DNA of 64,000 nucleotides from Deltaproteobacteria bacterium (lineage in GTDB: Bacteria > Myxococcota > UBA727 > VGSZ01). Position numbers and translations under genes: made by a program. The stretch is taken from positions 4,712 through 68,711 of the forward strand of contig JADZDP010000177.1 of NCBI GenBank assembly GCA_020850995.1, written 5' to 3'. Below the pieces are notes generated by a model, which had not been told where the DNA came from, did no database searches, and worked only from the letters and a program-made list of their open reading frames with translations. Of the stretch, positions 6,295 to 64,000 are shown one piece after another (position 1 is the stretch's first letter; every line of letters starts with the position of its first letter).

Positions 6295-6668
6295 GGTCGG
6301 CTCCAGCTCGCGTCGCTCGTCGCTGACGCGGGGTTTCTCCCACGGCGGGAGAGTGCGGCACAGCGCGCGCACCAAGGGAGCGTAGGAACCGGCCCGCGCC
6401 GGACAAGGGCAGGCCCGCCGCGCGGACCGCCGCGGGGGCGCGCGCTCAGCGCTCGGCGGCCTCGAGCGCGACGCTCTCCGACTGCAACCACAAGCTGCCC
6501 AGCGCCCACGTCGAGAACGCCACGGTGGCCAGGGCGAGCACGAGGGGCTTCCAGAACGAGGGCACGGGGGCGGCGGGGGATGTGGGGGCGGTCTGCACCG
6601 GCGGTCTCCTGATGGCGTCGGGCAACGCTACGTGGAGACGGGGTCCGACCGCAAAATTTCCTTCCCGC

Positions 6669-8990
6669 ATGCCAAGCTCCGGCCGCGTGGGCCACAACGG
6701 CGCAGATCGAACCGAGGTCTTGGGCGGCGGCGACCCCAAGCGGCAGCCCCGGCTCGGCCGCTATCGCCTGGAGCGGCGCATCGGCCAGGGGGGCATGGCC
6801 GAGGTGTTCCTGGCGCGCGCCGAGGGCCCCGGCGGCTTCGAGAAGCAGGTCGTCATCAAGCGCATCCGACCGCAGCTCGTGAAGAACGAGCGCTTCGTCG
6901 AGATGTTCCTGCGCGAGGGTCGCCTGTTGGCGGGCCTCGATCACCCGAACATCGTGCGCGTCTTCGAGCTCGACGAGGCCGAGGGCGAGTACTTCCTGGC
7001 GCTCGAGTACTTGGACGGCCTGTCGCTGCGCGAGCTGATGGAGCGCTACTGGTTCGCCGGCAGGACCGTGCCGCTCGAGCCGGTGCTGCGCGTCTTCTCC
7101 GAGGCCGCGCTCGGCTTGGCGCACGCCCACGGCCTCAAGGAGCCGGGCGGCGCCTCGGCCAACCTGGTGCACAGAGACGTCAGCCCCGACAACCTCTTCG
7201 TCACCTCCACCTCGATCACCAAGGTGCTCGACTTCGGCATCGCCAAGCGCGAGGGCCTCGACGTGCTCACCCAGACCGGGGAGCTCAAGGGCAAGATCCA
7301 GTTCATGTCGCCCGAGGCGCTGCGCGGCGACACCTTGGATGCGCGCACCGACCTGTGGTCCTTCGGCATCACCATGTACTGGGCGTGCGCGGGGCGGCGG
7401 CCCTTCGACGGCGTCACCGATGTGCACACCATCAAGGGCATCCTCGAGGATCCGCCGCCGCCCTTGCGGCAGTTCAACAGCAAGCTGCCGGTGGCGGTGG
7501 AGGACATCGTCGCCTCGTGCCTCGAGAAGGACCGCAGCAAGCGCGTCAAGAGCGCGGCGCAGCTGCACGACACGCTGAGCGCGCTGCTCCTGGACCTGCC
7601 GCGCGGCGCGCCCACGCCCGCCGAGCTGGTCGCGGCGGCTCGTGCGCTGCCCTCGGTAGAGCACGAGATCACGCCGCGCACGGCCGCCGTGGCGCCCACG
7701 GTGCAGTGGCCCGATCGCACCATGCCGGTGGCGGTGGGCTCGTCGGGCGGTTCCTCGTCGATGATCGGGGCGCGCGGCAAGAACGCCCTGCCGCTGCCCG
7801 AGGGGACGGCGCTCGAGAGCGCCAAGGGCACCGAGGCCGCCACCAAGATCGGCCGCAAGTTCCAATCGAGCGTGCCGCCCACCGACAAGGTGCGGCCCAA
7901 GGTCGAGGCCGCCGAGGCGAGCGATGGGAGCGGCGAATTCGAGGGCGCCACCGACCTGGTGCCGGCCTCGTCCCTCCACACCACCGACGAGCACCGGCGC
8001 GTGATGGTGAGCACCGAGCACTCCGACGAGGCGCTCGGCACCACCGGCCCGCTGCGCTTGGAGGGCGACGGCGCCGTGCAGCAGGGCTTCCAGCCGCCCT
8101 CGGACCCCGTCATCGACGTCGAGCGCGAGCCGCGCTCCGGACCCAGGGCCGCGGCGCCCGCGGTGTCGCCGAGCGCGCCCACCATGCCGCACGTGGACCT
8201 CGCCGGCGTGGCGGCCGGCGCGCACGACATCCACGATCAGCACACCCAGGCGATGGTGGCGCTGCCGCAGTGGCCCGAGGCGGCCGAGGTCGAGATCCCC
8301 GCGGCGCGCCCGGCGCGCGTCGCGCCGGTGCTGGCCGGCATCGTCACGGCGCTGGCGATCGTGGTGGGCGCCTTGCACCTGAGCGGCATGCTCAATCGCG
8401 TCATCGATGGCCTGCTCGGGCGCGCGTACGCCGGCCTCGACGCCGGCACCGACCTGCCTGTCGACGCTGCGCACGAGGTCATCGCCGCGCCGGTCGACGC
8501 GGGCGCCGTCGTGGTGGACGGCGGCGGCGCGGCCCTCATCGACGCGGGCGCCGCGCCGGTCGTCGTCGACGCGGGCAGCGCCGCGCCCGCGGGGCGCACG
8601 CTCACCTTGATCGGCCCCGAGCACATCGAGTGGCTTGGGCCCACCGCCGAGCCCTTGGGCCTCGCGCGCGTGACGGTGCAGCTCGCGAGCGACGCCAAGG
8701 TCGTGTTTGCAAAAGACGCGCGCCGCGGCTGCACCACCCGCATCACCTTGGCGCCCGCGCAGCACACGGTCGACTACGCCCGCCTGCCCAAGGGGAAGAT
8801 CACGGTGCGCACGCGCCCGCCGGCCGAGGTGTTCCTCGGCGGCGAGCGGCTCGGGCGCACGCCGCTGCCGCCGCGAGAGCTGGTGGCCGGGCACTGCGAG
8901 CTACGCCTGGTGGCGCGCAAGAAGAGCAAGAAGGTGCCGGTCGAGGTGCGCGCCGGCAAGACCACCACGCTGACGCAAGACCTGCGCTGA
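6669..8990 (+). CDS. Ser/Thr protein kinase with C-terminal PEGA domain
   Basis: Kinase subdomains GQGGMAEVF, HRDVSPDNLFV, DFGIAK, SPE. The C-terminus has a PEGA-like module (RPPAEVFLGGERLGRTPL). The start was set to the ATG at 6669 (MPSSGR) to avoid overlapping the lon promoter; the table ORF begins at 6525. Confidence 0.75.
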   Translation: MPSSGRVGHNGADRTEVLGGGDPKRQPRLGRYRLERRIGQGGMAEVFLARAEGPGGFEKQVVIKRIRPQLVKNERFVEMFLREGRLLAGLDHPNIVRVFELDEAEGEYFLALEYLDGLSLRELMERYWFAGRTVPLEPVLRVFSEAALGLAHAHGLKEPGGASANLVHRDVSPDNLFVTSTSITKVLDFGIAKREGLDVLTQTGELKGKIQFMSPEALRGDTLDARTDLWSFGITMYWACAGRRPFDGVTDVHTIKGILEDPPPPLRQFNSKLPVAVEDIVASCLEKDRSKRVKSAAQLHDTLSALLLDLPRGAPTPAELVAAARALPSVEHEITPRTAAVAPTVQWPDRTMPVAVGSSGGSSSMIGARGKNALPLPEGTALESAKGTEAATKIGRKFQSSVPPTDKVRPKVEAAEASDGSGEFEGATDLVPASSLHTTDEHRRVMVSTEHSDEALGTTGPLRLEGDGAVQQGFQPPSDPVIDVEREPRSGPRAAAPAVSPSAPTMPHVDLAGVAAGAHDIHDQHTQAMVALPQWPEAAEVEIPAARPARVAPVLAGIVTALAIVVGALHLSGMLNRVIDGLLGRAYAGLDAGTDLPVDAAHEVIAAPVDAGAVVVDGGGAALIDAGAAPVVVDAGSAAPAGRTLTLIGPEHIEWLGPTAEPLGLARVTVQLASDAKVVFAKDARRGCTTRITLAPAQHTVDYARLPKGKITVRTRPPAEVFLGGERLGRTPLPPRELVAGHCELRLVARKKSKKVPVEVRAGKTTTLTQDLR

Positions 8991-16854: not shown

Positions 16855-17318
16855 ACGGGCTCCACGTCTCGCGACGGAAGAGAGTGATCGGGGCGAAGGT
16901 GCTGGTTGGTGCCGCGCTTGTCAACGGGTGGCCGTGGGGCCTCGATCGGACCTGATGTATCGCCCTGCGAGCACGCCGGGGGCCTCTGCAGATCTCGGTC
17001 CGGTCGTTCGTTGCGCTCGCGTGACGGCGCGCCCGTCGCCGTCGATCCATCATCGACGATCGCGGTGCGCAGCGAGACGCGCGCGCGCAATCCGCGAGAT
17101 CCGAGCGCGAACGCCGATGAGGATCGGCGCGCATGTCCGCGGAAGATCGTGCTCGCGCAGATTCTTCGCCGAATCGCTTGCGGGGGCGACGAAGCGTCTG
17201 GTACAGGAACGCTCCCCGTCGACGAAAGGGTCGACATCACAACCACGCTGCCGTCAGGAGGGGTCACGCCACGCGCGACTCCGAGGGACGGCCGTCACCG
17301 TGGAGAGGCACCGCAGGC

Positions 17319-18800
17319 ATGACGCCGCGAAAGAGCGCGCCACCGTCCGACCAGCAGCGCCCGGGTGCACCCGTGGCCGCGCCCGGCGCCGATGGGGCCC
17401 CGGCGGCGCGCGTGCTGGCCGCGGTGCTCGAGCGCCTCGCACAGCGGGTGAGCCTGTTTACCTTCCGCGGCTTCCTGGAGCCGCTGCGCCCCGTGGCGCT
17501 CGCGCCTGATGACCAGGGCGCCCCCGAGCTCTTGCTGTCGGCGCCCACCGACTTCCTGCGCGACTGGGCCCGCGACCACTACCTCGAAGAGCTGACGCGC
17601 GAGGCGACCGCCGTGCTGGGCGCGGCCGTGGGGGTGCGCATCGTTGTGGCCCAGGGCGCGCCGGCCCCCGAGCCCGCGGCGCCGACGCTGGCCGCGCCGC
17701 GCGCCACGCCCTCCACGCTGCCACCGGCGGCGGTGGCGGCCGAGCTCGTGCCCTTCCGCGGCGCGCGCGAGCGGCCCGCTCGGCTCTCACCGCGCTACTC
17801 CTTCGAGTCCTTCATCACCGGCCCCTCGAACCGCATGGCCTACGCCGCCTGCACGGCGGTGGCCGAGCAGCCGGGGGCGCGCTTCTCGCCGCTCTTCTTG
17901 TTTGGCGGCACGGGCCTCGGCAAGACGCACCTCTTGCAGGCCATCGGCAACGAGGCGCTGGCGCTGCACCCCACCTTGCGCGTGGTGTACCTGAGCGCCG
18001 AGCAGTGGGTGAACGAGTACATCACCGAGATCCAGCACAAGCGCTTCGATGACTTCCGTCGTCGCTACCGCGACGGCTGCGACCTGTTGCTCATCGACGA
18101 CATCCAGTTCCTGGCGGGCAAGAACGCCTCGCAAGACGAGTTCTTCCACACCTTCAACGCGCTCTACGAGGCGCACAAGCAGATCGTGGTCACCTCCGAC
18201 CGCTATCCGCACGAGATCGCCGGGCTCGAGGATCGGCTCAAGACGCGCCTGCAGTGGGGCCTGGTGGCCGACGTGCAGCCGCCCGAGATCGAGACGCGCC
18301 TGGCCATCCTCGGGCAGAAGGCGCACGGCATCGGCTGCGCCTTGCCCGTCGACGTGGCCGAGTTCTTGGCCACCACGGTGACCTCGAGCGTGCGCGAGCT
18401 CGAGGGCGCCTTGGTGCGCCTGATGGCCTTCGCGCAGATCACGCGCGAGCCCATCACGCTCGCGGGCGCGCGCGAGCAGCTGCGCCCGGTGCTGGCGCTC
18501 AAGGCCACCGAGGTGCCCATGGGCCGCGTCATCGAGGTGGTGGCCACCTACTACGGGCTGCGCGCCAAGGACCTCACGGGGCCCTCGCGCCAGCGCCAGG
18601 TGACGCGCGCGCGTCAGGTGGCGATGTTCCTCGTGCGCCAGCACCTGGCGCGCAGCCTGCCCGAGATCGGGCGCGCCTTCGGCGACCGCGACCACACCAC
18701 GGTGCTGGCCAGCGTGAACAAGATCGCCGGCCTGCGCGAGGGCGACGCGGGCATCCAGGCAGTGCTCTCGCGCCTGGCGGCGAGCCTGTTCGGCGGCTGA
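17319..18800 (+). CDS. dnaA: Chromosomal replication initiator DnaA
   Basis: AAA+ Walker A GGTGLGKTHLL; DnaA signature regions (LLIDDIQFLAGK, C-terminal HTH VAMFLVRQHLARSLPEIGRAFG.RDHTTV). Start set to ATG 17319 (MTPRKS...). The 5' part of table ORF 17133.. is a frame shadow. Confidence 0.9.
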   Translation: MTPRKSAPPSDQQRPGAPVAAPGADGAPAARVLAAVLERLAQRVSLFTFRGFLEPLRPVALAPDDQGAPELLLSAPTDFLRDWARDHYLEELTREATAVLGAAVGVRIVVAQGAPAPEPAAPTLAAPRATPSTLPPAAVAAELVPFRGARERPARLSPRYSFESFITGPSNRMAYAACTAVAEQPGARFSPLFLFGGTGLGKTHLLQAIGNEALALHPTLRVVYLSAEQWVNEYITEIQHKRFDDFRRRYRDGCDLLLIDDIQFLAGKNASQDEFFHTFNALYEAHKQIVVTSDRYPHEIAGLEDRLKTRLQWGLVADVQPPEIETRLAILGQKAHGIGCALPVDVAEFLATTVTSSVRELEGALVRLMAFAQITREPITLAGAREQLRPVLALKATEVPMGRVIEVVATYYGLRAKDLTGPSRQRQVTRARQVAMFLVRQHLARSLPEIGRAFGDRDHTTVLASVNKIAGLREGDAGIQAVLSRLAASLFGG

Positions 18801-18888: not shown

Positions 18889-18953
18889 AAAACTCCCGCC
18901 ATCAAGGCTTCACTGGCCTGTTTCTTGACGAGCCTCTTGCCCAGGAGCACCCC

Positions 18954-20390
18954 ATGACAACGCCCGCGCTGCGCGACTTCTTGGAGATCCCCTACGACAA
19001 GCTCGAGGACATGAACCTCGAGCTCAAGGCTGCGCGCCTGTCGCGCACCAGCGCGGACAAGCTGCGCGAGGCCCGGCTCAAGTACCTGACCGACGAGAAG
19101 CGCATCAAGGCCGTCACCGTCTGCTTCACCGACCTCGAGGGTCGGCTGCAGATGCTCGACTACGACAAGAAGTTCCTGCTCAAGAGCGCCGACAACCTCA
19201 CCTTCGACGGCAGCTCGGTGCGCGGCTTCTCGGCGCAGCACGAGAGCGACCTGCGCCTCAACGTCGACTGGTCGTCGTTCTACTGGCTGCCCGCCGACGT
19301 GTTTGGTCCGGGCAAGGTGCTGGTGTTCTCCGAGGTGCTCGACCGCGACGGCAACCTGTACGCCTCCGACATGCGCGGCCGCCTCAAGCGCTTCACCGAC
19401 GAGATGTTCGCCAAGGATCAGGTGCTGTGCCACGTCGCCCCCGAGATCGAGGGCTTCCTCTTCGAGGGCAGGGACGCCGAGCGCCGCTACCACGAGACCG
19501 GCAAGTTCGACTACGTGTCGACGGGCGGCTATTACCACTCGCTGCCGGGCGACAAGCTGCGCGCCTTCATCGACGCCGCCGCCGAGGTGCAGCGCGCCAT
19601 GGGCTTCGGCAACGAGAAGGACCACCCCGAGGTGGCGCCCTCGCAGTTCGAGATGAACTTCGCCTACAGCGACGTCATCATCACCGCCGACCAGGTGCAG
19701 CTCTACAAGCTCTTGTGCCGTCAGGTGGCGTCGAACCTCGGCATGACGGCGAGCTTCTTGCCGAAGCCGGTCACCGGCATCAACGGCAGCGGCATGCACA
19801 CCAACATGTCCTTCAACAAGGCGGGCAAGAACCTGTTCTGGGAGAAGGGCGGCAAAGACAACTTGAGCCAGGCCGGCTGGGACGCGATCGATCGCATCCT
19901 CACCTCCGCCGACGACATCTGCTTGATCCTGAACTCGTCGGTCAACGCGTATCGCCGGCTCGACCCGCACTTCGAGGCGCCCAACCAGATCAAATCGAGC
20001 GCCAACGACCGCGGCTCCATGGTGCGCATCCCCACGGGCAACGAGAAGAGCGCGCGCATCGAGGTGCGCAGCGTGGGCCCCGACGCGAACCCCTACCTGA
20101 CCTTCTACACCATCGCCAAGACGGCGCTCGAGGGCCCGCGCTCCGTGGCCGACGAGGCCAAGCGCGCGCGTACGCGCTACCTGCCGGACAACATCAACGA
20201 CGCCATTCGCCTCTTCAAGGGCAGCAAGTGGGCGGCCGATCTGCTCGGCGAGGCCGTGCAGACCAAGTTCGCCGACCTGAAGCAGATGCAGGCGGACCGC
20301 TGCAGCAAGGCGCTCGGCGCCCTCATCAAGGTGCCCGAGATCCAGTTCCACCACGAGGTCACGAACCAGTACCTCTGGTCGAAGTTCTGA
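18954..20390 (+). CDS. glnA: Glutamine synthetase family protein
   Basis: GS signatures HPEVAPSQFEMNF, KPVTGINGSGMHTNMS, NAYRRL; 478 aa. Confidence 0.85.
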   Translation: MTTPALRDFLEIPYDKLEDMNLELKAARLSRTSADKLREARLKYLTDEKRIKAVTVCFTDLEGRLQMLDYDKKFLLKSADNLTFDGSSVRGFSAQHESDLRLNVDWSSFYWLPADVFGPGKVLVFSEVLDRDGNLYASDMRGRLKRFTDEMFAKDQVLCHVAPEIEGFLFEGRDAERRYHETGKFDYVSTGGYYHSLPGDKLRAFIDAAAEVQRAMGFGNEKDHPEVAPSQFEMNFAYSDVIITADQVQLYKLLCRQVASNLGMTASFLPKPVTGINGSGMHTNMSFNKAGKNLFWEKGGKDNLSQAGWDAIDRILTSADDICLILNSSVNAYRRLDPHFEAPNQIKSSANDRGSMVRIPTGNEKSARIEVRSVGPDANPYLTFYTIAKTALEGPRSVADEAKRARTRYLPDNINDAIRLFKGSKWAADLLGEAVQTKFADLKQMQADRCSKALGALIKVPEIQFHHEVTNQYLWSKF

Positions 20391-56270: not shown

Positions 56271-58256
56271 TCAGAGCCCGAAGCGATAGCCGGTCACCAC
56301 GGCGACGCCGACGGGCAGGCCCACGAGCTGCTCGCCGGCTACACCGCTGAGGGCGCGCGCGGTGCCGGCGCGCGCGTCGACTTCGAAGAAGCCGGGGCCG
56401 AGGCGGTGGGCCCACCCGATCACCAGCTGCCCGCCGAGGGAGGGCTCGACCGTGTGCCGCACGGTGCCGCGAAAGGGGTAGCGCAGCTCGCCGAGCACCA
56501 CGCCCACGGCGCCACCGAGGTGGAACGCGACGTCGGGCGAGATGGGCGGGCGCCAGCCGAGCTCGACCCACAGCGGGTAGCTGCGCTGATCGAGCACCGG
56601 CGCCGGTCGCAGCAGCGACTGCAAGAGCGAGGCGGACACGCCGGCGTGCAGGCTGCCGTCGAAGCCGGGCAGGCGCGCCAAGAGCGAGAGGTCGGGGCCC
56701 ACCGACACCATGGCGCCGTAGTTCGAGCTGATGGCGAGCCCTGCGCCCACCAGGAACAGGGCCTGCGGGGGCGGCGCCGTGCGCACCAAGGTCTCGGCCT
56801 GCACCTCGCCCACCGAGCCAGTGACGCGCACGAAGTCGGGGTGATCGTTCTTCACCGGCACCAGGCGCGCCACGAAGCGCTTGCCGTCGACGGCGCCGCC
56901 CTCGATGCGCCCCACGCGCTCTTCCACCTCGATGCGCGCGCCCGTCGGCACCAGCTCGTTGCCGGCCCGGTCGGTGACGCGCAGCGACAGCTCCACCGCG
57001 CTCTCCCCGTCGGCGACGACCACGTCGGCCTTGTCGAAGGAGGCGCGCGCCGGCTTGCCGGCGCTGAGCGACACCTTGGCCAGGCCGAGCACGGTCCCCG
57101 CGGGGACGCGCGCGCTGATGGTCACCTCGGTGCGCTCGGTGTGTGGCGGGATCAGCCAGTTGATGCGGCGGCGGCCGTCTGGCAGCGTGCTGATGGCATC
57201 GATGCGGCCATAATCGACGTCGACGGTGGCGGCGCTGGCGGCCACGGTGCTGCCGGCGCCGTCGAAGAGCTGCACCACGGTCTCCACCACGCGCTCGTCG
57301 TCGGCGCTGAGGGCGTTGCGCGAGAGCGTGAACACGGCCTTGGCCGGCGCGCCGCTGATGAGCTGCACGCTGGCCTCGGCCTCGGATCCCGCGGCGCCCT
57401 CGAGGGCCACCGCCACCGTGGCCCGGCCCGGCGCGGTGGTGCCCGGCTGCCAGGTGACGAGGAAGACGCCCGGCGCTACGCCCACGGGCGCGCCGGAGAA
57501 CGCGCCCACGCTGGCCGTGGTCTTGAGCTTGGCGGTGTGCAAGGGCGCGCCCTTCTTGTCGACGACGAAGGCCAAGAGGCGGCCCTTGGCGCCACCGTCG
57601 GCCGCCACGGGGTTGTCGAGCGCCATCAGCGCCACGCGGTTGAAGGAGGGCACGCCGAGGTCGATGGCCTTCTGCGACTCGTTGCCCACCTCGTCGACGG
57701 AGCGGGCCACGGCGCGCTCTGGGCCGGGGGGGACCAAGAGCGGCACCTTGGCCAGGCCCGTCGGGTCGGCCTGCACCGGCCCGTGGCTGTCGTTGCCGAT
57801 GAACACCGTCACCGTGCTGTTGGCCTTGGTGCGCACGGCGGTCTCGCCCTTGCCCCAGAGCTGCACCGGCACGAAGCCCACGGCGGACGCGGTGGCGGTC
57901 TCGATGGTGGCGGCCACGATGGCCACGTGGGGGAACGCCTCTTTGGGCGGCGTGAAGGTGCAGCTCCAGACGCCGGGGCCCGTGCGCGTTGGGCTCGAGA
58001 GCGCGCCCGTGGACACCGTGAGCGCGGGCGGCGCCACGTCGAGGGGCGTGCCGTCGGGCAGCTTGGCCGTGAGCGTCACGGTGGCGCTGGTGGTCTCGCC
58101 GAGCACGACGCGCGCGGGCTCGAGCGCGAAGGTGATGGCGGTGGCGTCGATGGCGCGGGCGCGCGGCTCGGCGGCGTGCGCCTGCGCGGCGAGGGCGAAG
58201 GCGAGCGCGGGCGCTGCGCGCAGCAGGGGGAGGAGGGCGGCGCCAGGGTGCGGCAC
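56271..58256 (-). CDS. Large secreted protein with repeated Ig-like domains and C-terminal beta-rich region
   Basis: Candidate GTG start 58256 followed by a signal peptide (PHPGAALLPLLRAAPALAFALAAQAHA). Repetitive Ala/Val/Gly beta-strand pattern. The upstream 200 aa of the table ORF is antisense shadow of the GNAT gene. Confidence 0.5.
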   Translation of the reverse strand: MPHPGAALLPLLRAAPALAFALAAQAHAAEPRARAIDATAITFALEPARVVLGETTSATVTLTAKLPDGTPLDVAPPALTVSTGALSSPTRTGPGVWSCTFTPPKEAFPHVAIVAATIETATASAVGFVPVQLWGKGETAVRTKANSTVTVFIGNDSHGPVQADPTGLAKVPLLVPPGPERAVARSVDEVGNESQKAIDLGVPSFNRVALMALDNPVAADGGAKGRLLAFVVDKKGAPLHTAKLKTTASVGAFSGAPVGVAPGVFLVTWQPGTTAPGRATVAVALEGAAGSEAEASVQLISGAPAKAVFTLSRNALSADDERVVETVVQLFDGAGSTVAASAATVDVDYGRIDAISTLPDGRRRINWLIPPHTERTEVTISARVPAGTVLGLAKVSLSAGKPARASFDKADVVVADGESAVELSLRVTDRAGNELVPTGARIEVEERVGRIEGGAVDGKRFVARLVPVKNDHPDFVRVTGSVGEVQAETLVRTAPPPQALFLVGAGLAISSNYGAMVSVGPDLSLLARLPGFDGSLHAGVSASLLQSLLRPAPVLDQRSYPLWVELGWRPPISPDVAFHLGGAVGVVLGELRYPFRGTVRHTVEPSLGGQLVIGWAHRLGPGFFEVDARAGTARALSGVAGEQLVGLPVGVAVVTGYRFGL

Positions 58257-58789: not shown

Positions 58790-59275
58790 GTGGACCGCAC
58801 GCCCATCCTGCCCGTGGCGCCGCTCTCGTCTGCCACGACCGTGGCAAGGCAGGTGCAGCGCGAGCTCGAGGCGCACGAGGTGGACCCCGCGGTGGTGGCG
58901 GGCCTGGTGCGCGCGCGCTTGGCGCTCGAGCGGGCGCGCGGCTGGGTGAGCTTCCTCGGCATCATCACCACGGTGGCGGGCGTGGTGGGCCTGGCGCTCA
59001 CCGTCGACAGCAAGGGGCTCTTGGCGGTGCTGGCGCCGCTGGTGGCGTCGGTGCCCTTCGCGGCCGTGCTCTTCGCCGAGCGCCTCGCGTGGTTCTCGTT
59101 CTCCCGCCACGCGCGCGCCGTGGGTCTGTCGGCGACGGCGTGCCGGCGCGTCTTCGAGGGCGCCGCTGGGGTCGATCACTGGATGGACGTGCTCGCGTCG
59201 TGCGGGCGCCCGCCCACCGACGTGGAGATCGCGCGCTTCGTCATCGGGCGTGACGAGGGCGTGGTGCCGGCCTGA
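58790..59275 (+). CDS. Hypothetical membrane protein (2 TM)
   Basis: ORF with two hydrophobic helices. Confidence 0.35.
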   Translation: MDRTPILPVAPLSSATTVARQVQRELEAHEVDPAVVAGLVRARLALERARGWVSFLGIITTVAGVVGLALTVDSKGLLAVLAPLVASVPFAAVLFAERLAWFSFSRHARAVGLSATACRRVFEGAAGVDHWMDVLASCGRPPTDVEIARFVIGRDEGVVPA

Positions 59276-59506
59276 GGGCCGAGGGTGCCGGCGGGACGGC
59301 GCTCGGACCTGCTCGCCCGCTTGTGATCCGCACCACGACACGACACCGCACGCTCGGCCGGGTGGGTCCGCGTCCACAGCTGTGAGCGCGATGGAACGCG
59401 GCGCGTACCGCGCTGCACAGCGAGCAGCTCGCGCCGAACCTACCGAACGGCTTGCGCCGCGATCGGGCGCCTGCTAGGCGGCCCGGCGCGAATCGGGGTG
59501 AACGAG

Positions 59507-62500
59507 ATGCATACGAGCAGGATTGCGGCGCCGCGCGCGCGCGCGGGACGAGACACGTCGAATGGTCGCCAGTGGCGCGCGACCGCGCAGCGGAGCAGCA
59601 AGCAGGCGCTCGCGCTCTTGCTGGCGCAGCTCTTGTTGCTGCCCCTACCGCTGCGCGCGCAAGAGGAGAGCGCCGAGGTGACGGGCGCCTTCACCGTCAA
59701 CGACTTCGTGCCCTCCCTCGCCAGCAACGCCGTGAGCACCACCGCCGCGACAGGTGAGCGCCACTTCTCGGTGCCGGTCTCGGCGCGCGGCAGCTTCGGC
59801 CACTCGCTGCCGATCGAGGTCCCCGCGGGGCGCAACGGCATGAGCCCCGCGCTGGCGCTCGGCTATGAGAGCGGGCAGCTCAGCGACTCGGTGGTGGGCG
59901 CGGGATGGCAGCTCACGACGGCGCAAGTGACGCGCTCGACCCGCGAGGGCACGCCGCAGCTCGTGCGCGAGGGCACCGCGCTGCGCTACGCCGACGACGA
60001 CGGGGCGGGCGCGCGTTTTTCTGTGGGAGACGCTGAGCTGGTGCCGCTGGCCGCCGCCGCCACGCGCCCGTCGACGCTGCTGCGGCAGAGCACCATGTAC
60101 CTCGCCGAGCGCAGCGGCGCCGCGCCCACGGTGTGGGAGTACTCGCCGCTCGACGACGCCTGGGCCGAGCACCGCCCGAGCGGCGTCAAGGCCTACTACG
60201 GCGCCGACCCCTTCGACACGAACGGCACCACGCGCGTGCGAAACGAGCTCGGCACCTTCGCGTGGCTCTTGGTGCGCGAGATCGACGTCGACGGCAGCAG
60301 CGTGATCTATCGCTACCACTTCGCGAGCGATCAGACGCGCGCCAACCTGCGCGACGCGCAACGCGCCCCCGTGCTCGCCAAGGTGAGCTGGGGCGGCAAC
60401 CGCGTCATGGGGATCAACGATCCCTTCTCCGTCGAGGTGAGCATCAGCGCCGGCGTGAACCAGGGCGGCGTCGACTACCGCCGCGGCAACGTGCGCACCG
60501 CGGGCCGCGTCTCGGCCATCAGCGTGTGTGGCCCGCAGCAGACCATGACGACGGCGAGCGGCAGCATCACCGTGGGCAGCCTGGCCGCCAGCGGCACGCC
60601 TTGCGCTGGGCGCGTGCAGTATCGGAAGTACGGGCTCGCCTATGCCCGGAGCGCCGACACCGCGCGCTGGCTCTTGTCGTCGGTGACGGAGACCGTCTCC
60701 GACGTGGCCGAGGCGCGGACCACCAGCTTCAGCTACAGCTCCAACAAGGGACATCTCGCCTTCGCTGCGCCCCAGGTGCTGCCCGGCGCCACCAGCGGGG
60801 CCCTGCGCTTCCTCGACACCAGGCTCCTCATGACGCAGCGGTCGACGGCACGGACGCCGGACGAGGCCATGGCGAAGACCGACGTCACCGAGGCCGCGCG
60901 CTTCATCGATGTCACGGGTGACGGCCGCGCCGATCTCGTGCACCACGCGGCGGGCATGGGCGCGGTTGACGCGCCCGTCGTCAGCTACGCCGACCCGGTG
61001 GTGTACGCCAGCGAGGACCCGATCGCGTTCGAGCCCTTTGGCGTCGACGTGGTGCGCAGCGCGTACAAGAACGCGGCCGGCTCGTTCCGGGCCCTGACGG
61101 GCGGCACGTCCGCGTCGGTGCGCGAGCACCTCTTGGCCGGGAGCGCGCCCACGGGCCTGGTGTCGTCGCCCACGCGCTACACCGATCTCGCCGACGTCGA
61201 CGGCGATGGCCGCGTGGACGGCGTGTTCTTCTCCTCCATCCGCACCGACCGTCCCCCGCCCTCGCGTGGCGCCTGCTTCAGCGAGGATTTCTGGCGCGCC
61301 TGCGGGCCCATCGATCCACCCATGCCGGGCTTCGACGTGTGCGCGGTGAGCTCGGTGTGCGAGATCGTGAGCGAGCTCGACCTGGTGGCCTGCGTCGATG
61401 ACTCCTGCTGGATCACGGAAGATCTCTTCGTCCGCCTCTTCGACGAGCTCGCCGATTGGCAGGCCACGCCGCCCACCTCGGTGGAGGGCCAGCAGATCCT
61501 CGCGGGCTTCGGCATCTCGGTAGAAGCGCTGCGCCGCTTGGTGTTGGTGAACGCGCTCGAGCTGCGCGCGCGCATCGGCCTGCGCGTCGACTACTCCGAG
61601 AGCGAGGCCAAGGACCTCGAGCTGCAGGCGGCCAACGCGCAGGGCTCCAGCGCGGAGAAGTGCGCGGGCCTCCTCGAGTGGTGCCACGGCTCGGGTGGGC
61701 TTGACGGGCTGCCGGCGCCCCACGTCGACATCGACTACGAGGGCCTGCTCTCCGAGCTGTGCTTCGAGTTTCACGACGACGAGATCTGCGCGACGCCGCC
61801 GCACGATCACCCCACCGTGCACGCGCCGGTGATGAACCTCGGCGTGCACGTCGGTGGCGGCACGCCCCTGAGCGGCGCCGCCTTGGTGCCGCTGCGCGGC
61901 TGGCCCGCGGGCTTTGGCAAGGCCACTATGCTGACGGGGCCCAACGGCGCGGGCCTGCCGCCCTACGTCGCCGAGATCGTGGCCGACATCACGGCTCCCA
62001 TCGTGGACGCCAACGGCGATGGGCGCGCGGACGTGCTGCTCCTGCGCGGCATCGAGATGACGATTGCCAACGGCATGCGCCCGTCCTTCACCTTCGTGCC
62101 GCGCGCCTTCATCGCCCACGACGCGCCGAGCGAGCGCACCGTGAGCCCCGTGGGCTTCACGCTCGACTGGGACAGCTTCCATCAGAAGTACCCGCTGCCA
62201 GGCGAAGTGCAGCTCCCCGTCAGCGACTTCACGCAGTCCATGAGCGACATCTTGGTGACGCCCGGGCTCGACTACCGCTTCGGCCCCGAACCCTCGGTGT
62301 TCGAGGAGGGCGTGGCCTTCAACTCCTTCGTGCTCGACGTCAACGCAGACGGCTTGCCGGACCTGATTGCCGCCGAGCCCGCGCCGACCAACCTGCACTC
62401 GGGGCATCAGGTCTTCCTCAACCGCGGCTATCGCTTCGGCGTGCCCGCGGCCGGGCGGCCCGGGGCCACCACGAGCTTCGTGCCCATGAGCGCCGGCGCG

Positions 62501-64000
62501 GCGCAGGGCCCCTTCGGGCGCCTGCTCAAGCGCGAGCTGGACGAGCACTTCGCCGCGGGCCGCGATGGGCACGTGCCCATGGCGGGCATGTCCTTCGTCG
62601 ACGTCAACGCCGATGGTCGTGTGGACGTGGTGGTGTGGGCGGGTCCGAGCGACCAGGATGGCAGGCTCGAGATCTGGCTCAACCTCGGCGATCGCTTCGA
62701 GCGCGCCCACGACAACGGTCCCCAGGGCACGCTGGCGCCGCTGCAGGTCGACCTGCCCGCAGGTGTCGGCACTGGCGGGCTGCGCTTCGCCAATCTGGAG
62801 CCAAGCTCCTTGTCGAACACCCGGCGCGGCTTCACCATCGGTGACCTGCTCAGGATGGAGGACGTCGACGACGACGGTCTGGTCGACCTGGTGGTGCCGG
62901 GGCTCGTGTGTCCGACCTTGGCAGCCGCGGGCAACGTCGACTGCGACGCGGAGGCGAACCGCTACGACCGCGCCGGCGTGACGCGCGAGACGAACGGTTG
63001 GATCACGCTGTCGAACCCCTCGCGCAAGCTGCGGCGCGCGCGCTTCCTGCGCAACCTCGGCGAGCGCCCCGATCTCCTCACGGGCATCAGCAGCACGGGC
63101 GGTGCCGGCATGGCCATCGCCTACGGCAACGCCCGCACCAGCGCCGTGGTGGCCAGCGACTTCGTGCCGCCCGGCCTGCCCGTGGTCGAGGAGGTGGAGT
63201 CGTGGTCGGCGCCGGGCGCCGACGCGTCGCTGGTGCTCCTCTCCTACGCCGACTTCGTGCGCGGCCGACCGGGCGTCGAGAGCACGGGCTTTGGCGAGGT
63301 CGCGGCCACCTTCATCGAGAGCTTCGAGGGGCTCGCCACCACCCGGGCGACCTTGACGCGGCGCTACCACAGCGAGAGCGAGGCGCTCGGCGTCGCCATG
63401 CCCTTCCGCGGACTGGTGCAGGAGGAGATCGTGGACGCCGACGGCGAGCGCACGCGCACGATCACGACGCGCAGCGCGCACGCCGTGAGCACCTCACGGC
63501 CCGCCCTACGCGTCGACCAAGACGCCGTCATCGAGGAGGCGTGCACGCTGGCTGGCGCGAGCTGCGCCAGCACGCCGGTGGCGCGGGCCCACCTCGTCGA
63601 CGCGCGCGACCAGCTCGGCCTGCCGCTCAGGGAGCGCGACGGCGACTATCGCAGCGGCAGCCTGAGCGACGTCGTCAGCACCGAGACCGCCTACGGCCAC
63701 CGCACGGGGCCCTGGGTGCTCGGCCTGGCGGAAGAGCAGGTAGTGACGGGCACGCGCTACGACGTGGAGGGCAACGCGAGCACCGGCGTGCTCAGCCGGC
63801 AGCTCGCCACCTATGACAGCGTCGGCCGCGTGCTGCGGCAAGAGCGCCCCGGGGTGAGCGACGCCGCCTGCGGCCTTGGCGAGCTCGATGAGCTCACCGA
63901 GGTAGTGGCGCGCAACGGCGCCGGCAACCCCACGACGGTGGAGCACAACGGGCAGCGCGTGAGCTTCACCTATGACCCGTGGCAATTGGAGCGGCGCCGC
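59507..64000 (+). CDS. SpvB/TcB-like N-terminal domain protein with FG-GAP/integrin-like beta-propeller repeats (giant polymorphic-toxin-type protein; 3' end beyond window)
   Basis: Manual translation from ATG 59507 gives MHTSRIAAP...LLLAQLLLLPLPLRAQEE (signal), then SFGHSLPIEVPAGRNGMSPALALGYESGQLSDSVVGAGWQLTTAQVTRSTREGTPQL (SpvB/TcB N-domain signature). Later repeats include FIDVTGDGRADLV, VNADGLPDLI, FVDVNADGRVDVVVW and MEDVDDDGLVDLVVPG. The frame is open to nt 64000 at spot checks. It is absent from the ORF track because there is no in-window stop. Confidence 0.7.
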   Translation, partial: MHTSRIAAPRARAGRDTSNGRQWRATAQRSSKQALALLLAQLLLLPLPLRAQEESAEVTGAFTVNDFVPSLASNAVSTTAATGERHFSVPVSARGSFGHSLPIEVPAGRNGMSPALALGYESGQLSDSVVGAGWQLTTAQVTRSTREGTPQLVREGTALRYADDDGAGARFSVGDAELVPLAAAATRPSTLLRQSTMYLAERSGAAPTVWEYSPLDDAWAEHRPSGVKAYYGADPFDTNGTTRVRNELGTFAWLLVREIDVDGSSVIYRYHFASDQTRANLRDAQRAPVLAKVSWGGNRVMGINDPFSVEVSISAGVNQGGVDYRRGNVRTAGRVSAISVCGPQQTMTTASGSITVGSLAASGTPCAGRVQYRKYGLAYARSADTARWLLSSVTETVSDVAEARTTSFSYSSNKGHLAFAAPQVLPGATSGALRFLDTRLLMTQRSTARTPDEAMAKTDVTEAARFIDVTGDGRADLVHHAAGMGAVDAPVVSYADPVVYASEDPIAFEPFGVDVVRSAYKNAAGSFRALTGGTSASVREHLLAGSAPTGLVSSPTRYTDLADVDGDGRVDGVFFSSIRTDRPPPSRGACFSEDFWRACGPIDPPMPGFDVCAVSSVCEIVSELDLVACVDDSCWITEDLFVRLFDELADWQATPPTSVEGQQILAGFGISVEALRRLVLVNALELRARIGLRVDYSESEAKDLELQAANAQGSSAEKCAGLLEWCHGSGGLDGLPAPHVDIDYEGLLSELCFEFHDDEICATPPHDHPTVHAPVMNLGVHVGGGTPLSGAALVPLRGWPAGFGKATMLTGPNGAGLPPYVAEIVADITAPIVDANGDGRADVLLLRGIEMTIANGMRPSFTFVPRAFIAHDAPSERTVSPVGFTLDWDSFHQKYPLPGEVQLPVSDFTQSMSDILVTPGLDYRFGPEPSVFEEGVAFNSFVLDVNADGLPDLIAAEPAPTNLHSGHQVFLNRGYRFGVPAAGRPGATTSFVPMSAGAAQGPFGRLLKRELDEHFAAGRDGHVPMAGMSFVDVNADGRVDVVVWAGPSDQDGRLEIWLNLGDRFERAHDNGPQGTLAPLQVDLPAGVGTGGLRFANLEPSSLSNTRRGFTIGDLLRMEDVDDDGLVDLVVPGLVCPTLAAAGNVDCDAEANRYDRAGVTRETNGWITLSNPSRKLRRARFLRNLGERPDLLTGISSTGGAGMAIAYGNARTSAVVASDFVPPGLPVVEEVESWSAPGADASLVLLSYADFVRGRPGVESTGFGEVAATFIESFEGLATTRATLTRRYHSESEALGVAMPFRGLVQEEIVDADGERTRTITTRSAHAVSTSRPALRVDQDAVIEEACTLAGASCASTPVARAHLVDARDQLGLPLRERDGDYRSGSLSDVVSTETAYGHRTGPWVLGLAEEQVVTGTRYDVEGNASTGVLSRQLATYDSVGRVLRQERPGVSDAACGLGELDELTEVVARNGAGNPTTVEHNGQRVSFTYDPWQLERRR

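Follow-up and report, generated by a model that had tools for sequence, protein, structure and literature searches.

The stretch of DNA analysed here (64,000 nt of contig JADZDP010000177.1, from a Deltaproteobacteria bacterium placed in the Myxococcota; hereafter the window) ends inside a large gene on the plus strand, which encodes a putative toxin of the Rhs type. From the ATG at 59507 to the end of the window, the frame 59507–64000 (+) comprises 1498 codons without a stop, as the initial annotation had reported; it makes up the 5' 60% of the toxin gene (1498 of about 2494–2495 codons), which extends past the window end. The length of this open reading frame (ORF) is in itself weak proof of a gene because the window has a G+C content of about 71%, and long open frames arise by chance opposite genes when the G+C content is high. 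Coding status was decided on the G+C content by codon position, on domain matches and on homologues. In the 59507–64000 frame, the three codon positions have G+C contents of 0.69/0.53/0.93, evenly along the whole gene, and a protein of 2494 aa recovered by protein search (P0001) is 99% identical to the translation across all 1498 residues. The antisense ORF of 1278 codons at 59645–63481 (−) displays the mirrored values (0.93/0.52/0.68); it is thus a shadow of the plus-strand frame and not a gene, which is how the initial annotation had read it. That annotation had also remarked that the toxin ORF is missing from the accompanying ORF track; indeed, the list leaves out ORFs that run off the window. 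The segment 59507–64000 is therefore confirmed as a real gene, namely the 5' part of the toxin gene.

Upstream of the toxin ORF, the closest in-frame stop lies at 59324, and the only start candidates 5' of the hydrophobic segment described below are GTG 59498 and ATG 59507, the ATG being the start chosen by gene callers on related contigs. Note that in two alleles that are 98.5% identical (L080, 4679–10477, and L081, 4295–10093), the called start lies 24 codons further upstream (MNLPDGLCRDRGP...), which results in a still longer n-region ahead of the same hydrophobic core. The start codon of the toxin gene is uncertain for this reason.

The N-terminus of the protein consists of a long basic n-region and a hydrophobic core (aa 34–49) followed by LRA|QEE, and is probably a Sec-type signal peptide (aa 1–51; 59507–59659, +), as called heuristically from sequence and hydropathy. 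The same feature is present in the relatives P0002 and P0004 and in most members of the clade described below. Three families score above the curated Pfam cutoffs: SpvB (52.7 bits, aa 93–277), FG-GAP_3 (58.3 bits) and FG-GAP (27.9 bits). The SpvB/TcB N-terminal domain, a predicted part of the shell, spans aa ~93–424 (59783–60778, +), and the FG-GAP/integrin-like beta-propeller region spans aa ~460–1150 (60884–62956, +) and holds six calcium-type motifs, D-x-[DNT]-x-[DN]-G-x-x-D, at aa 468, 563, 834, 944, 1032 and 1119. The initial annotation had deduced a signal peptide, an SpvB/TcB N-domain and integrin-like repeats from the letters alone, and all three were borne out; the strings that it quoted (PIEVPAGRNGMSPALALGYESGQLSDSVVGAGWQLT, TREGTPQ and, at the window edge, YDPWQLERR) are all in the translation. 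The RHS/YD shell begins at a conserved RNLGxxPDLL motif around aa 1180 (63044–64000, +), in which the alignment columns N1182, P1187, D1188 and L1190 are invariant. The YDPWQLERR neighbourhood, proposed as the beginning of the RHS/YD repeats, gives only a sub-threshold RHS_repeat match within the window (15 bits for a cutoff of 22; aa 1470–1492, 63914–63982, +), but RHS repeats are found in the orthologues. TcdB_toxin_midN remains below its Pfam cutoff (11.8 versus 24.8 bits), TcdB_toxin_midC is undetected in the window protein, and an NCBIfam scan of this protein returned nothing further above cutoff.

The propeller region measures ~690 aa, roughly double the length of its counterpart in TcdB2 (residues 376–691, 316 aa). 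Between its second and third motifs lies a variable insert of ~240–270 aa (61259–61981, +), delimited by alignment and by the positions of its cysteines, ten of which lie between aa 590 and 761. Most of these are kept in P0002 and two in P0003, the P0004 sequence being different there, and the profile matches of clade members are commonly split near the insert. The abundance of cysteines in a protein that is probably exported suggests that the insert is disulfide-bonded and has a role in specificity. Beside the last FG-GAP motif, a hypervariable, allele-specific loop was revealed by DNA and protein comparison (62917–62978, +): over 22 residues (aa 1137–1158), the window allele is unlike all the other ~99% identical alleles. 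The loop reads C-PTLAAAGNVD-C-DAEANRYDRAGV in the window and C-PTSLMPETQ-C-DVSAHIYDRADL in the others; two conserved cysteines (Cys1135 and Cys1146) bound one side of it, and its DNA carries indels of 1 nt and 2 nt, only scattered substitutions being seen elsewhere in the gene. Either a short tract of gene conversion or diversifying selection on a surface loop could account for it.

An AlphaFold2 model was computed for aa 55–1254 from a 15-sequence alignment. Its mean predicted local distance difference test score (pLDDT) is 52.6; only the SpvB-like part (aa ~94–424) is confidently modelled (pLDDT 70–93), and the propeller and the insert score below 50, so that neither the number of blades nor the fold of the insert can be read from it. 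When this model was compared with the PDB by Foldseek, the best 13 matches were all TcB subunits (TcdB1, TcdB2 and YenB; E=2e-20 to 6e-16), aligned over ~1250 columns with ~12% identity and a template modelling (TM) score that is only ~0.35 because the propeller is poorly modelled. The SpvB N-domain (6p0x), type VI secretion system (T6SS) Rhs cores and teneurins followed as weaker matches. By sequence alone, the comparison with the PDB reaches the SpvB region only (E about 3e-4). Since TcB proteins are the best matches in fold and sequence similarity is confined to the SpvB region, the protein is best described as a remote TcB-like relative.

To extend the gene beyond the window, as the initial annotation had advised, we relied on related contigs retrieved by exact look-up of two small proteins whose genes closely precede the toxin gene in the window. 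Fourteen such contigs were obtained from several samples (including NCBI GCA_041918315.1); their DNA is 98.5–99.1% identical to the window, and none of the 14 is identical to it. They share one gene order: MFS transporter, invasin/Big_1 protein (on the minus strand), GNAT acetyltransferase, 161-aa ORF, toxin, ankyrin protein and 560-aa protein. Four independent toxin alleles are complete (P0001, L078, L079 and L082). Each encodes 2494 aa, they differ from one another at about 5 residues, and their C-terminal tails and ankyrin genes are identical. The window gene very probably continues as these ~99% identical alleles do.

In the full-length protein, RHS_repeat (32.9 bits) and YD_repeat (34.9 bits) both exceed their cutoffs, and the Rhs-associated core TIGR03696 is detected past the window end at aa 2196–2279 (45.5 bits for a cutoff of 32.5). 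The core ends with NPVRMTDRRGG, which fits the PxxxxDxxG motif reported to be conserved in TcC proteins (PMC7861908). We rejected the idea that DRRGG in place of DPxGL is an anomaly, given that, across the clade, the position following the Asp is freely variable. In a four-protein alignment, D2244, D2276 (the putative catalytic Asp) and G2279 are invariant. Judging from these residues, the Rhs core is a probable autoprotease with a PxxxxDxxG motif and two putative catalytic aspartates.

The last 215 aa, after the end of the Rhs core at residue 2279, constitute the predicted cargo: a Gly/Ala-rich, transmembrane-like stretch of ~60 residues (Kyte–Doolittle hydropathy up to 2.25 over 19 aa) and an unclassified domain of ~110 aa. 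Searches in Pfam (E<=0.1), in NCBIfam, with a PDB sequence profile and by word index returned no family for it, and AlphaFold2 run on a two-sequence cargo alignment gave a pLDDT of 62, the conserved motif scoring below 50. The cargo is nonetheless homologous to the C-terminus of an SpvB–RHS protein from Saccharibacteria (L006; 31% identity over 143 aa, E=5e-11, a value computed against a small database of fetched loci), and a further homologue forms the C-terminus of the clade member P0082; the three have the motif VPGGxAG...TG...H in common. The Saccharibacteria region lies at 6360–6782 of CAZQMO010000008.1, a Candidatus Saccharibacteria metagenome-assembled genome (MAG) contig, and the gene downstream of it does not encode an ankyrin protein.

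In all four full-length alleles, past the window end, the stop codon of the toxin gene is overlapped by a gene for a 162-aa ankyrin protein, which has strong Ank matches and neither a signal peptide nor a transmembrane helix. The initial annotation had recommended looking for a downstream immunity gene, and by its position this one is an immunity candidate.

The wider family was delineated by searching representatives of 50%-identity clusters exhaustively with a profile of the N-terminal 1200 aa: 13,908 of them match at E<=1e-3, of which 4,560 reach E<=1e-10 and 163 reach E<=1e-30. Several dozen proteins form a tight clade (250–860 bits, mostly 2,270–2,720 aa). In a scan of genomes, the nearest relatives among the matches listed come from Sorangium (So ce131, So ce56 and So ce726) and from other Polyangia/Myxococcales MAGs, and the more distant ones from Saccharibacteria, Planctomycetota and others; this distribution and the G+C content point to a Polyangia-like origin of the window. 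Most complete clade proteins start with a hydrophobic N-terminus, and of the 37 members that reach 2,200 aa or more, 33 retain the NPxxxxD.xG motif. Invariant within the species of the window (four alleles), the tail varies across the clade: the tails are 120–380 aa long and mostly unrelated, with only 14 tail–tail BLAST pairs among those compared, and they include AHH, HNH and Tox-REase-7 nuclease modules as well as PT-HINT and Peptidase_M91. A small ORF abuts or overlaps the stop of the giant gene in 20 of the 21 relatives examined. Polymorphic tails that carry toxin modules, together with this small ORF at the stop codon, are the signature of a polymorphic toxin–immunity pair.

The hydrophobic stretch is also a feature of the clade. 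A transmembrane-like segment occurs within the first ~110 aa after the core cleavage motif in 23 of 39 clade tails, compared with 3 of 702 control windows taken from protein bodies, and in several members it stands ahead of nuclease domains. This segment may be a membrane-entry element or may belong to a membrane-active toxin. In five members (P0029, P0040, P0041, P0049 and P0056), a leader of ~100 aa containing a hydrophobic stretch is homologous, and in P0040 and P0049 it appears to precede a PT-HINT-type module.

Other architectures were seen among the relatives. Two Sorangium proteins of 3,460–3,555 aa (L044, 7760–18424, Sorangium sp. So ce131; L071, 7676–18055, S. cellulosum So ce56) are extended at the N-terminus by ~750 aa, which include a ZU5 autopeptidase domain ahead of SpvB. 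Other Sorangium relatives (L039 and L057) encode a B-like protein of ~2,260 aa and, in a second gene downstream, an RHS (C-like) protein; one of these C-like proteins has an LHH nuclease match just under the Pfam cutoff.

As for the remaining neighbours, the 161-aa ORF (58790–59275, +) lies 231 nt 5' of the toxin gene, is syntenic in all 14 related contigs and encodes two hydrophobic helices. The conserved 560-aa protein encoded after the ankyrin gene, past the window end (L078, 12727–14409), resembles a lipoprotein at its N-terminus (LPALA|C), is rich in cysteines in its N-terminal segment and has no match in Pfam or NCBIfam. Both proteins were considered as known partners of the toxin and set aside, neither having a family match. 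Two genes upstream of the toxin, 56271–58256 (−) encodes a probable surface adhesin of 661 aa in which Invasin_D3 and Big_1 domains were identified; it is syntenic in the related contigs. Elsewhere in the window, dnaA (17121–18800, +; Bac_DnaA, DnaA_N and DnaA C-terminal domains) is followed by a glutamine synthetase gene (18891–20390); the presence of dnaA indicates that the window is probably near the chromosomal replication origin.

Taken together, these data make it likely that the ORF encodes the first 1498 residues of a Sec-exported, single-chain TcB–TcC-like ('BC fusion') Rhs polymorphic toxin of ~2494 residues, of the TcdB/TcaC trafficking type. They support the interpretation put forward in the initial annotation. 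What goes beyond the domain content, that is, export, closure of the cocoon, autoproteolysis, delivery and immunity, is modelled on characterized relatives. By analogy with these, the toxin would be exported across the inner membrane, and the SpvB domain would join with the RHS repeats to build a closed shell, with the propeller as its plug. The aspartyl protease of the core would sever the cargo, which would be kept unfolded within the shell; together with its variable insert, the propeller would bind the surface of a target cell or a docking partner, and the cargo would be released into the target. The ankyrin protein would neutralize the cargo in the producer and in sibling cells, and the most likely use of such a toxin would be antagonism of other microbes.

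Several points weigh against this scheme. The 3' end of the window's own gene is taken from contigs none of which is identical to the window, and polymorphic toxins can exchange their C-termini among strains. No partner for export or delivery came to light, and a BC cocoon would have to deliver its cargo in the absence of TcA. The signal peptide, the disulfide bonds of the insert and the closure of the cocoon are features that we infer, the model being poor (pLDDT below 50) precisely in the propeller and the insert. The cargo has no known family or fold. Lastly, the role ascribed to the ankyrin protein draws on position and precedent only.

We also considered that the protein could be the B–C part of a genuine tripartite (ABC) Tc toxin, whose propeller would dock onto a TcA pentamer encoded elsewhere and whose cargo would be injected into eukaryotic (insect, nematode or amoeba) cells. 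TcB subunits are, after all, the best structural matches over the whole 1200-residue model, and the domain order and the length of 2494 aa are close to those of the TcdB2–TccC3 fusion constructs in the PDB (2434–2439 aa). In addition, a cargo of 215 aa falls within the 201–400 aa usual for the hypervariable regions of TcC proteins, and a natural B–C fusion, ABA52082.1, exists (PMC7861908). A TcA gene, however, is apparently absent from the window and from the 10-kb flanks of the relatives. In the window, the 59 kb that precede the toxin gene contain no coding ORF of more than about 900 aa by the G+C criterion, and the largest proteins encoded there are a Lon protease, a Ser/Thr kinase, a protein of 712 aa without assignment, CstA, a GGDEF–EAL protein and the invasin-like protein; likewise, nothing the size of a TcA gene is encoded within 10 kb of any of the 21 relatives inspected. 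The large neighbours (>1100 aa) that were scanned near relatives, including those of the Sorangium relatives that we had considered as TcA candidates and rejected, are kinase/histidine kinase proteins and RHS (TcC-like) proteins. Moreover, the components of YenTc have no signal sequences and are released by type X secretion system (T10SS) lysis (PMC10847048), and an examination of Tc loci turned up no immunity protein in any of them (PMC7861908). A classical Tc complex is thus disfavoured by the signal peptide and the immunity-type gene, both of which are present here. The identity to TcB of only ~12%, the sub-threshold midN, the absent midC and the doubled propeller with its insert point in the same direction, and we regard a tripartite toxin as unlikely. 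Accordingly, the description as an 'RHS-type polymorphic toxin' in the initial annotation fits the data, but the label 'Tc toxin', in the strict sense of a TcA-dependent insecticidal toxin, is unsupported.

Another explanation retains the shell and differs in the cargo, which would be a membrane-depolarizing or pore-forming toxin of the glycine-zipper type, like Tse5-CT, rather than an enzyme provided with a hydrophobic entry segment. The strong hydrophobicity of the first ~60 Gly/Ala-rich residues and the recurrence of such stretches in clade tails speak for it, and Tse5 sets a precedent, having shown that an Rhs cocoon can enclose a hydrophobic, pore-forming, membrane-inserting cargo (PMC10684867). 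In the toxin studied here, by contrast, the hydrophobic stretch is followed by a conserved soluble domain (VPGGxAG...TG...H) common to two other toxins, and in other clade members it precedes nucleases. Immunity to ionophoric toxins, besides, is usually conferred by a membrane protein, and the immunity candidate is a soluble ankyrin protein. We therefore judge a pore-forming cargo quite improbable. Finally, the protein might have no toxic function and act at the surface or in adhesion (as a teneurin-like YD-shell protein), or might be an inactive remnant, as the weak teneurin matches and the neighbouring invasin/Big_1-type gene could suggest. This reading is hardly credible in view of the conserved autoprotease motif with both of its aspartates, the polymorphic C-termini of the relatives with their known toxin domains and adjacent immunity-type genes, and the four alleles in which the full ORF is uninterrupted and substitutions are very few.

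A bolder proposal can also be made, which we put forward tentatively and hold to be rather unlikely as it stands. The clade would have a TcA-independent mode of delivery in which a Sec-exported BC cocoon uses its enlarged propeller and disulfide-rich insert as a receptor binder, and the transmembrane-like segment with which most cargos of the clade begin serves as a membrane-translocation element kept in solution by the shell; the cargo (VPGGxAG...TG...H) would define a new toxin domain family common to a myxobacterium and to Saccharibacteria, which belong to the candidate phyla radiation (CPR). In the literature searched, we found no experimental study of TcA-less members of the TcdB/TcaC-type class. 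As an annotation, the gene is ordinary: it is what a specialist of polymorphic toxins would anticipate in a genome like that of Sorangium. The less usual features are the size of the propeller and its Cys-rich insert, the unclassified cargo and the transmembrane-like cargo leaders of the clade. The gene is a well-supported, population-conserved example of a widespread class (~4,560 of the 50%-identity cluster representatives match at E<=1e-10), and this class raises the question of how the cargo of an Rhs cocoon is delivered without a TcA syringe or a T6SS spike, to which the hydrophobic leader of the cargo and the variable insert of the propeller offer concrete, testable leads.

How does this toxin compare with known systems? 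With T6SS Rhs effectors (Tse5, RhsA, and the Salmonella and Advenella Rhs cores), it has in common an Rhs cocoon, the probable C-terminal autoproteolysis, a polymorphic cargo and a putative cognate immunity protein. Unlike them, it begins with a signal peptide, SpvB and a propeller; PAAR, VgrG and prePAAR gave no Pfam or NCBIfam match in the window protein, and no T6SS genes are present among the neighbours scanned.

The likeness to the Photorhabdus TcdB2–TccC3 and Yersinia YenB–YenC proteins (PDB 4O9X, 6H6E and 4IGL) extends to an SpvB-type N-domain, an RHS shell and, by prediction, a propeller closing this shell, an aspartyl autoprotease (D651/D674 in TccC3; PxxxxDxxG) and an encapsulated C-terminal cargo. 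By contrast with these proteins, the toxin is made of one polypeptide instead of two, has a predicted signal peptide and an adjacent immunity-type gene, and has no TcA gene nearby; its propeller region (~690 aa with the Cys-rich insert, versus 316 aa in TcdB2), its low identity to TcB and the sub-threshold scores of the Pfam TcdB mid domains also set it apart. ABA52082.1 of Burkholderia pseudomallei 1710b is likewise an apparent B–C fusion encoded by a single gene, reported within the context of Tc loci (PMC7861908); we liken it to the present toxin by description only.

The closest counterpart is the TcdB/TcaC-type class, known only through comparative genomics and characterized by a signal peptide, SpvB, an integrin-like propeller, RHS repeats, and ZU5, HINT or caspase processing domains (Zhang et al. 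2012, PMC3482391). The class is present in delta-proteobacteria, with examples in Sorangium cellulosum (sce3516-type deaminase toxins), and ankyrin (Imm-ank) is a recognized immunity type (PMC3482391). The toxin described here resembles the members of this class in its predicted signal peptide, SpvB domain, propeller, RHS repeats, variable C-terminal toxin and adjacent immunity-type gene; it differs in having none of the three processing domains and a cargo that belongs to none of the catalogued toxin families. Three features lead us to assign it to the TcdB/TcaC type, namely its predicted signal peptide, the downstream genes of immunity type and the nucleases that its relatives carry as cargo; on these grounds, it is best seen as a probable further member of an already described class and not as a classical insecticidal Tc complex.

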